Below are positions 14,948 through 15,619 of a stretch of DNA of 64,000 nucleotides, piece by piece. The first letter of the stretch is position 1, and every line of letters begins with the position of its first letter. The DNA comes from Escherichia phage EF1-1, in sequence record PQ571289; one strand, written 5' to 3'. The notes under the pieces are model-generated. The model was given only the letters and a program-made list of their open reading frames with translations, had not been told where the DNA came from and made no database searches. The position numbers were made by a program, and so were the translations under genes.

Positions 14948-15619
14948 ATGAAAAAGTTTGTTGTTTACAGTCGTCTTTCTAAACAGAAAAAAGGTGAGGC
15001 ACAATATGGTATGGAGAGCCAAGAGAACGATATCCGTTACTTCTTAGACTCTGTGCCTGATGCTGAAGTTATTGGTCAATTTTCTGAATACTATTCGGGT
15101 AAGGGCGATTGGAAGCAACGTAAGGAACTGGTCAAAGCGGTTGAAATGTGTAAAGCTACCGGAGCAACTTTATTGGTAGCTAAAGTTGACCGCTTGGGTC
15201 GTAACAACGCCTCCGTAGCAACTCTTCTGGAGTTGATCGATGTTAAGATAGCCATCATGCCAGACGCAGATAAAATGGTTATACAGCTTCTATCTGTTCT
15301 GGCTGAACAAGAAGTTAGAGGTATTGCTGATCGTATTAAAAAGGGTCTTGCTGTAGCAAAAAGTAAAGGTGTTTTATTAGGCAGTGCTAATCCTAAAACT
15401 GCCGCTGCACGTAGAAAAGGAAAAATGGAATACAACTCTGTTAAAGCAGACGCTTTTGCAGAGACATTCCGTGAACGCTTGGAGATCCTTAGAGATTTAA
15501 ATACACCTTACAAAACTATTGCTGAAAAATTCAATAGTAAGAAAATAGCAACAGCACGTGGTGGTAAATGGGATGCTAAAACTGTTTCTCGTTTGTGTGC
15601 CAGACTTAACATTAAATAG
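14948..15619 (+). CDS. small serine recombinase (resolvase/invertase family)
   Basis: YSRLSKQ catalytic-Ser region, VAKVDRLGRN motif, C-terminal GGKWDAKTVSRL; TAGGAG RBS. Confidence 0.65.
   Translation: MKKFVVYSRLSKQKKGEAQYGMESQENDIRYFLDSVPDAEVIGQFSEYYSGKGDWKQRKELVKAVEMCKATGATLLVAKVDRLGRNNASVATLLELIDVKIAIMPDADKMVIQLLSVLAEQEVRGIADRIKKGLAVAKSKGVLLGSANPKTAAARRKGKMEYNSVKADAFAETFRERLEILRDLNTPYKTIAEKFNSKKIATARGGKWDAKTVSRLCARLNIK

Follow-up and report, generated by a model that had tools for sequence, protein, structure and literature searches.

Tn3 and gamma-delta resolvases and Sin (PDB 5CY1, 1GDT, and 3PKZ) are transposon- or plasmid-borne enzymes with a Hin-type helix-turn-helix and a multi-subsite res beside the gene. 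The invertases Hin, Gin, Cin, and Pin belong to the same superfamily, have genes of similar size, and are also carried by phages; they combine a C-terminal domain of the HTH_7 type with two inverted sites of 26 to 34 bp that bracket an invertible segment next to the gene. Large serine integrases such as Bxb1 (9IU2), SPbeta SprA/YokA (9DXD), and phiC31 are 450 to 600 aa long and owe their site choice and directionality to zinc-ribbon and coiled-coil domains. IS607-type serine transposases carry their DNA-binding domain at the N terminus. The phage recombinase described here shares its catalytic fold and catalytic residues with the resolvases; however, it has no Hin-type helix-turn-helix, no res beside the gene, and no transposon or plasmid context. 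The hallmarks of the invertases, that is, the HTH_7 domain, the inverted sites, and the invertible segment, are likewise missing. Its C-terminal domain resembles the first recombinase-domain helix-turn-helix of the large serine integrases, but at 223 aa it has neither a zinc ribbon nor a coiled coil, nor the remainder of the recombinase domain, so attP/attB discrimination and directionality control cannot be present. Unlike the IS607-type transposases, it carries its DNA-binding domain at the C terminus.

The window, a 64,000-nucleotide stretch of Escherichia phage EF1-1 (PQ571289), is DNA of a virulent Phapecoctavirus and is 98% identical to more than 60 sequenced Phapecoctavirus genomes. Phapecoctavirus comprises phAPEC8-like phages of the Stephanstirmvirinae, which are virulent myoviruses with a genome of ~150 kb. 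An earlier, sequence-only reading of the window had assumed a virulent phage without an integration module, and the assignment bears this out; no repressor or other lysogeny genes are found among the phage genome annotations. The recombinase ORF lies on the plus strand and runs from an ATG at 14948 to a stop codon at 15617-15619, such that the gene occupies 14948-15619 with its stop codon and encodes 223 aa. The ATG is preceded, at a distance of 5 nt, by the ribosome-binding site AGGAG (14938-14942). The GTG at 14942, which the ORF tool had listed, is an unlikely start for the recombinase because it overlaps this site.

A predicted sigma-70-type promoter was found at 14890-14918 on the plus strand, within the 70-bp gap downstream of the preceding ORF. 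It consists of TTGACA (14890-14895), a 17-nt spacer, and TAAAGT (14913-14918), and it matches the consensus at 10 of 12 positions. Matches of at least 10/12 are frequent in the small-gene block (70 sites versus 52.5 ± 6.1 in shuffles). A TTGACA-type promoter is nevertheless present 5' of the recombinase homologue in all six phage lineages compared, directly upstream in five of them and ~200 bp upstream in Vibrio phage 1.063.O. The pattern TTGACA-N16-18-TAnnnT precedes the homologue in PaulScherrer, phiWec179, FBKp34, ICP1, and Vibrio phage 1.063.O, and the promoter is kept even in lineages that have the recombinase gene at another locus. The cross-lineage pattern is better evidence than the consensus scan for a promoter belonging to the gene itself, as the sequence-only reading had proposed. 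From the promoter type and the position of the gene, transcription from this promoter would be early.

A direct terminal repeat of ~328 bp corresponds to ~5557-5885 of the window, within a non-coding region at 4690-6170. The Schickermooser record and several others start at window position ~5557, end at ~5885, and carry the repeat at both ends, which places the physical left genome end inside the window. Terminal repeats of 328 bp and 342 bp have been described for Schickermooser (PMC6563267) and for Justusliebigvirus BME3 (PMC12210895), respectively. The recombinase gene is thus 9.4 kb inward from the left physical genome end, in a long run of small same-strand genes that is presumed to be an early block and is far from the tail genes. 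No transposase and no transposon or plasmid context was found beside the gene; its neighbors encode small phage proteins, for which DUF7202 was the sole match in a Pfam domain search. The small genes include a family of paralogues with a C-terminal R-V-x-W-V-K motif, of which copies at 6083-6547, 13183-13509, 15995-16393, and 17284-17670 flank the recombinase gene and more copies are found in Justusliebigvirus. Further along the window, an AT-rich inverted repeat at 59487-59668, with 56-nt arms and perfect 10-nt outer ends (GTACTGTACT / AGTACAGTAC), lies in non-coding DNA just before a tRNA cluster and could be an origin or other structural DNA element. The tRNA cluster (60677-62586, plus strand) contains 11 genes, two for Met and one each for Arg, Ser, Tyr, Asn, Thr, Gly, Gln, Pro, and Ile.

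The assignment to the serine recombinases made in the sequence-only reading is well supported. Pfam PF00239 (Resolvase) matches residues 5-142 with E = 5e-18 and 65.9 bits (curated cut-off 23.3), PHROG 125 ("DNA invertase") matches with E = 5e-32, and the motifs YSRLSKQ, VAKVDRLGRN, and GGKWDAKTVSRL, which that reading had quoted, are all present in the translation. The PF00239 match, the alignment, and the AlphaFold model place the catalytic domain and the long helix E at residues 1-139 (14948-15364, plus strand), and the codon of the nucleophile, Ser11, is at 14978-14980. In an alignment with 33 diverse homologues of down to 31% identity, Y7, R9, S11, Q25, R58, D81, R82, and R85 are invariant, from which we conclude that the catalytic apparatus is intact; the check for the catalytic serine that had been suggested is thereby answered. 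The AlphaFold model (pLDDT 89.8) has an alpha/beta catalytic domain whose first strand begins at residue 2, helix E at 109-139, and a C-terminal helix bundle that holds the DNA-binding domain. Foldseek returned Sin, TP901-1, gamma-delta, and Bxb1 with a probability of 1.00, with Bxb1 ranking top over the whole model. By sequence, the best solved relatives are the Tn3 and gamma-delta resolvases (E = 3e-6, residues 45-146). PADLOC gave no match for the recombinase, and NCBIfam gave sub-threshold matches only (YneB, XisF, and Mpi). Taken together, these data indicate a stand-alone small serine recombinase with a residue set that is predicted to be catalytically intact.

The C-terminal helical DNA-binding domain (residues 148-223; 15389-15616, plus strand) is a shortened helix-turn-helix of the recombinase-domain type. 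PF07508 matches residues 187-216, weakly; among 33 family members, PF07508 was detected in 20 and HTH_7 in none. When a profile of the C-terminal domain was compared with solved structures, the sole natural protein found was the SPbeta large serine integrase (residues 204-244, E = 3e-4), and ~40 C-terminal residues align to the recombinase domain of large serine integrases. On sequence grounds, the domain is therefore regarded as homologous to the first helix-turn-helix of the large-serine-integrase recombinase domain and not as one of the Hin/resolvase type.

Between relatives, the two halves of the protein behave very differently. The recombinases of the window and of phiWec179 are 94.6% identical over residues 1-147 and 35.5% identical over residues 148-223, and nucleotide similarity between the two genes ends at nt 434. 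The phiWec179 gene (L004, 4001-4675) thus has a sharp mosaic junction at about codon 147, with identity returning in the last five residues (LNIK). Metagenomic relatives repeat this pattern, with the catalytic domain at 83 to 85% identity and the C-terminal domain at 68%, 56%, or 36%. The repeated change of the C-terminal domain on a constant catalytic domain suggests that target specificity has changed repeatedly. Ordinary mosaic exchange with a crossover at the conserved catalytic region could give the same picture, since the genes downstream differ as well.

Protein identity is 99.6% in 62 Phapecoctavirus records, 73 to 74% in phiWec179-like phages, ~56% in Justusliebigvirus, 52 to 54% in Klebsiella relatives, 35 to 38% in Vibrio and Shewanella phages, and 30% in some ICP1 isolates. 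The gene was present in all 56 of the Justusliebigvirus records that match the locus and in ~70/70 of the Phapecoctavirus records that match the region, or 126/126 for the two genera together. Between the window and six close genomes, 4 to 16 synonymous codon changes were counted and a single non-synonymous one (L96M, specific to the window), and the catalytic domain is 94.6% identical to that of phiWec179 although the upstream neighbor gene is 48% identical. These values point to strong purifying selection on the catalytic domain and to maintenance of the gene in strictly lytic phages, and they suggest that the chemistry matters to the phage. Together with the invariant catalytic residues, they also speak against the remnant of a mobile element that had been offered as one reading of the gene. 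By blastn, no copy of the gene was found in the chromosomes and plasmids of 5,426 complete E. coli genomes.

The locus also differs between genera. In Justusliebigvirus and in Klebsiella phage FBKp34, the recombinase is located between homologues of two genes of the Phapecoctavirus SF1-1. In SF1-1 those two genes are parted solely by a 45-bp terminator hairpin, and no recombinase lies between them. Conversely, in Justusliebigvirus C3 the homologue of the window's upstream neighbor overlaps a different gene, which leaves the Phapecoctavirus-type site empty, and the recombinase is found 14 kb away on the opposite strand. Filled sites hold a TTGACA-type promoter and the recombinase gene, whereas empty sites are without both; this pattern indicates that promoter and gene moved as one self-contained unit of ~740 bp. 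No partner gene is conserved beside the recombinase across lineages, and no repeats or element ends were found flanking the promoter-gene cassette. A single relocation would suffice to account for the two loci in the sister genera.

In a wider search, the family was found to have 4,013 representatives (50%-identity clusters, E ≤ 1e-30), most of them 215 to 240 aa long and matched in one stretch, and 93 homologues of ~220 aa have the same two-domain build as the recombinase. Some database proteins of 400 to 900 aa (P0094-P0105 and others) contain two to seven separate full-length matches to the ~220-aa family, and are either tandem recombinase fusions or merged gene calls. The gene has already been annotated in relatives and belongs to a known enzyme class, of which it represents an uncharacterized sub-family. 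Its orthologues include phi92 gp052/053, PaulScherrer bas60_0199, Ro121c4YLVW AVZ45439 ("serine recombinase, gin"), and SKA64 ORF101, and their GenBank names conflict across dozens of records (DNA invertase, resolvase, serine recombinase, ABC transporter, and hypothetical). The SKA64 paper (PMC10282059) includes no experiments on ORF101 but discusses it as a resolvase by which concatemers are kept as single genomes. Other homologues include one that lies where the tail module of a Pseudomonas prophage ends and one carried by a P4-like primase element. In ICP1, the homologue is in a variable block and occurs in only some isolates; we found no study of it in the literature, and the anti-satellite factor Adi is not a recombinase.

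Full-length relatives of 35 to 40% identity are encoded on 111 plasmid records; many of these plasmids are very small and non-mobilizable, including some of 5.7 to 6.5 kb. Three plasmids of 5.8, 5.8, and 6.4 kb were examined; relatives include WP_179373436.1 of Klebsiella pIIIF7SW-P1_2, MALG_05097 of Marinovum pMaD11, and one on Synechococcus pIITB3_2. The plasmid proteins resemble the phage recombinase over 97 to 99% of its length, with the same two domains and a C-terminal T-x-R-G-x-x-W helix; they differ in that long non-coding regions lie upstream of their genes. On the Klebsiella plasmid (L009), a 34-bp dyad with a 2-nt center is located 33 bp upstream of the recombinase homologue, which is the anatomy that would be expected of a simple crossover site. 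No such dyad is present near the phage recombinase. For the small plasmids, multimer resolution is a plausible role.

Every pair within a set made up of the window, three complete Phapecoctavirus genomes, and 100 kb of a fourth was compared, and no opposite-strand matches of at least 40 bp were found. The phiWec179 genome is collinear except for one 129-bp opposite-strand match at an inserted opposite-strand gene. This gene (L029, 2002-3015), a lone plus-strand gene amid the minus-strand tail genes of phiWec179, shares the 129-bp match with a different locus in B15 (4695-4823) and could be a mobile gene, e.g., a homing endonuclease. No inverted segment turned up when the window, five complete genomes, and 100 kb of a sixth were considered together; this orientation comparison rests on the consensus assemblies of six genomes, and an initial 25-kb megablast comparison was too noisy to read because of differing record origins and paralogues. 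A whole-genome self-comparison, which answers the proposal to look for paired inverted sites across the full genome, returned only one terminator hairpin pair and one palindrome as inverted repeats of at least 22 bp. The two copies of the 22-nt terminator hairpin AACCCGCTTCGGCGGGTTTTTT, at 21785-21806 and 26523-26544, face opposite ways and are 4.7 kb apart; no other perfect inverted repeat of that length exists in the genome, and the intervening segment is uninverted in all genomes compared.

Closer to the gene, inverted-repeat and dyad scans revealed no paired inverted sites flanking the recombinase within the window, in agreement with the sequence-only reading. In the window and four other phage loci, the 700 bp upstream of the gene and the 500 bp downstream are free of dyads and repeated half-sites; the exception among the six phage loci scanned is Vibrio phage 1.063.O, which has one dyad ~200 bp upstream. 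The genome-wide dyad count is close to the shuffled expectation. There is also no sign of a conserved DNA element inside the recombinase gene, where synonymous sites vary throughout with no suppressed block, and a comparison of B15 with phiWec179 yielded no short block that co-varies with the type of DNA-binding domain but two indels only. Serine recombinases can use short or weakly symmetric sites, and sites of either kind would be missed by the scans.

Several candidate sites were considered and set aside. A 25-nt inverted match between the start of the recombinase gene (14935-14959) and 49770-49794 comprises a ribosome-binding site and the start context ATGAAAAAG; no inversion is present between the two points, and the match was rejected as chance or similarity of translation signals. 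In phage nieznany, the annotated "repeat_region" corresponds to 44 bp shared by two of the R-V-x-W-V-K paralogous small genes. Direct repeats at 268-4228 are promoter and 5' hairpin modules, one per small gene, and not recombination sites. In this region, at the right end of the genome, six to seven modules are arranged at roughly one per small gene, each with a GC-rich 5' hairpin (GGCGG...CCGCC) behind a near-consensus promoter (TTGACAAC-N17-TAAGAT).

The terminal repeat itself contains two 19-bp palindromes (AATGAGAATAATTATCATT; 5631-5649 and 5810-5828), which were considered as sites for cyclization or concatemer joining and were rejected; they resemble Fur boxes. The palindrome core, found also at L012 53-71 and in L028, is identical in Justusliebigvirus BME3 and in phiWec179, despite the differing DNA-binding domains of their recombinases, and a further cluster of such palindromes lies elsewhere in C3 (L025, 8829-8905). 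For these reasons, the palindromes are considered to be unlinked to the recombinase. They may serve iron/Fur control of early promoters, or they may be a binding site for terminase or another protein.

Our best guess, to which we give somewhat less than an even chance, is that the enzyme is made early and carries out simple-site, resolvase-like recombination on phage DNA. Host RNA polymerase would transcribe the gene early from its own sigma-70-type promoter. A dimer of the recombinase would then bind a short site picked by the exchangeable C-terminal domain, and two bound sites would pair into a tetramer in which Ser11 cuts and strands are exchanged. Where replicating phage DNA contains the site as direct repeats, the outcome would be deletion or monomerization. 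A resolvase-like reaction of this kind is the presumed role of the full-length relatives on tiny plasmids. Three functions had been put forward in the sequence-only reading (an inversion switch, multimer resolution, and a mobile-element remnant), and multimer resolution appears the most plausible of them because full-length relatives reside on plasmids of 5.7 to 6.5 kb. Against resolvase-like recombination counts that no res-like site was found in the phage. Moreover, with a 328-bp terminal repeat the phages presumably package from concatemers and, if this is right, a gain from monomerization is hard to see. A DNA-binding domain that changes in a collinear genome would also suit a target outside the phage at least as well as one inside it.

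Resolvase-like recombination has to be weighed against several other roles. A DNA invertase in the manner of Gin, Cin, and Hin would flip a phage segment, such as a tail fiber gene or promoter, between inverted sites, and this inversion switch is how the best PHROG family and several GenBank records name the protein. The short tail fiber of these phages is, in addition, related to Mu gpS/gpU (BASEL collection, PMC8594841). However, the pairwise Phapecoctavirus comparisons yielded no opposite-strand matches of at least 40 bp, no inverted site pairs or inverted segment were found in the genomes compared, the C-terminal domain is not HTH_7 (0/33 family members), and the gene is far from the tail genes. 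On these comparisons, inversion appears largely refuted, and we consider it highly improbable. An integrase serving a hidden lysogenic or carrier state is the least probable role of all and is also largely refuted; a domain type that resembles large serine integrases and a Pseudomonas homologue at a prophage edge would suit it, but the 223-aa protein has neither zinc ribbon nor coiled coil, blastn against 5,426 complete E. coli genomes gave no match, and no lysogeny genes are annotated. It is similarly very hard to credit that the protein is only a DNA-binding regulator, e.g., a repressor of early promoters. Tn3 and gamma-delta resolvases do autoregulate by binding res at their own promoter, and the Klebsiella plasmid dyad lies just upstream of the start of the homologue; yet the Ser nucleophile and every catalytic Arg and Asp are conserved without exception among 33 homologues, the most distant at 31% identity, and the phage promoter has no dyad in or around it.

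Two further possibilities take account of the changing DNA-binding domain and of the movement of the cassette. The early recombinase could be a weapon or take-over factor that recombines or breaks host, plasmid, prophage, satellite, or rival-phage DNA, with domain swaps that track its targets. We regard a foreign target as unlikely, although it is the main rival: the promoter is of an early type and the gene lies among early genes, close relatives differ sharply in the DNA-binding domain but share a constant catalytic domain, and the dyad, synonymous-site, and co-variation scans found no cognate site in the phage. Serine recombinases have also been turned against mobile elements, as with Adi and the PLE integrase (PMC9638900), and the serine recombinase PinQ alters phage adsorption (PMC12529663). 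On the other hand, there was no PADLOC match and no target was found, the domain swap could be ordinary mosaicism in a region where downstream genes differ too, and hosts as diverse as Escherichia, Klebsiella, Vibrio, and Shewanella argue against one conserved host target. The more specific proposal, that the DNA-binding module is exchanged because it targets non-self DNA and that the enzyme is an offensive or counter-defense tool in lytic infection, is somewhat less likely again. Alternatively, promoter and gene could form a selfish cassette, comparable to a free-standing homing endonuclease gene, that persists and relocates with little benefit to the phage. The precise insertion of a single gene with its own promoter at two loci in sister genera, its restriction in ICP1 to some isolates and a variable block, and the homologues found at one end of a prophage and within a P4-like element would agree with such an element. 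We find it doubtful, as the gene is present in 126/126 records and so is not patchy, one relocation is enough, and neither flanking repeats or ends nor a conserved internal DNA element were found. Purifying selection on the catalytic domain does not discriminate here because it would apply equally to a selfish cassette.

PF00239 and PF07508 are in wide use as markers of lysogeny, and safety screens for phage therapy flag recombinase genes (PMC10282059). The presence of this recombinase in all sampled records of two strictly lytic genera that are candidates for therapy, with no sign of integration, leads to false alarms and to contradictory annotation. A 223-aa recombinase with a naturally exchangeable DNA-binding module could also interest tool builders, if its sites prove to be simple. 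To our knowledge, a site-specific recombinase has no established role in a lytic phage with short terminal repeats, and finding the substrate of this enzyme would add a new step to the biology of the lytic cycle.
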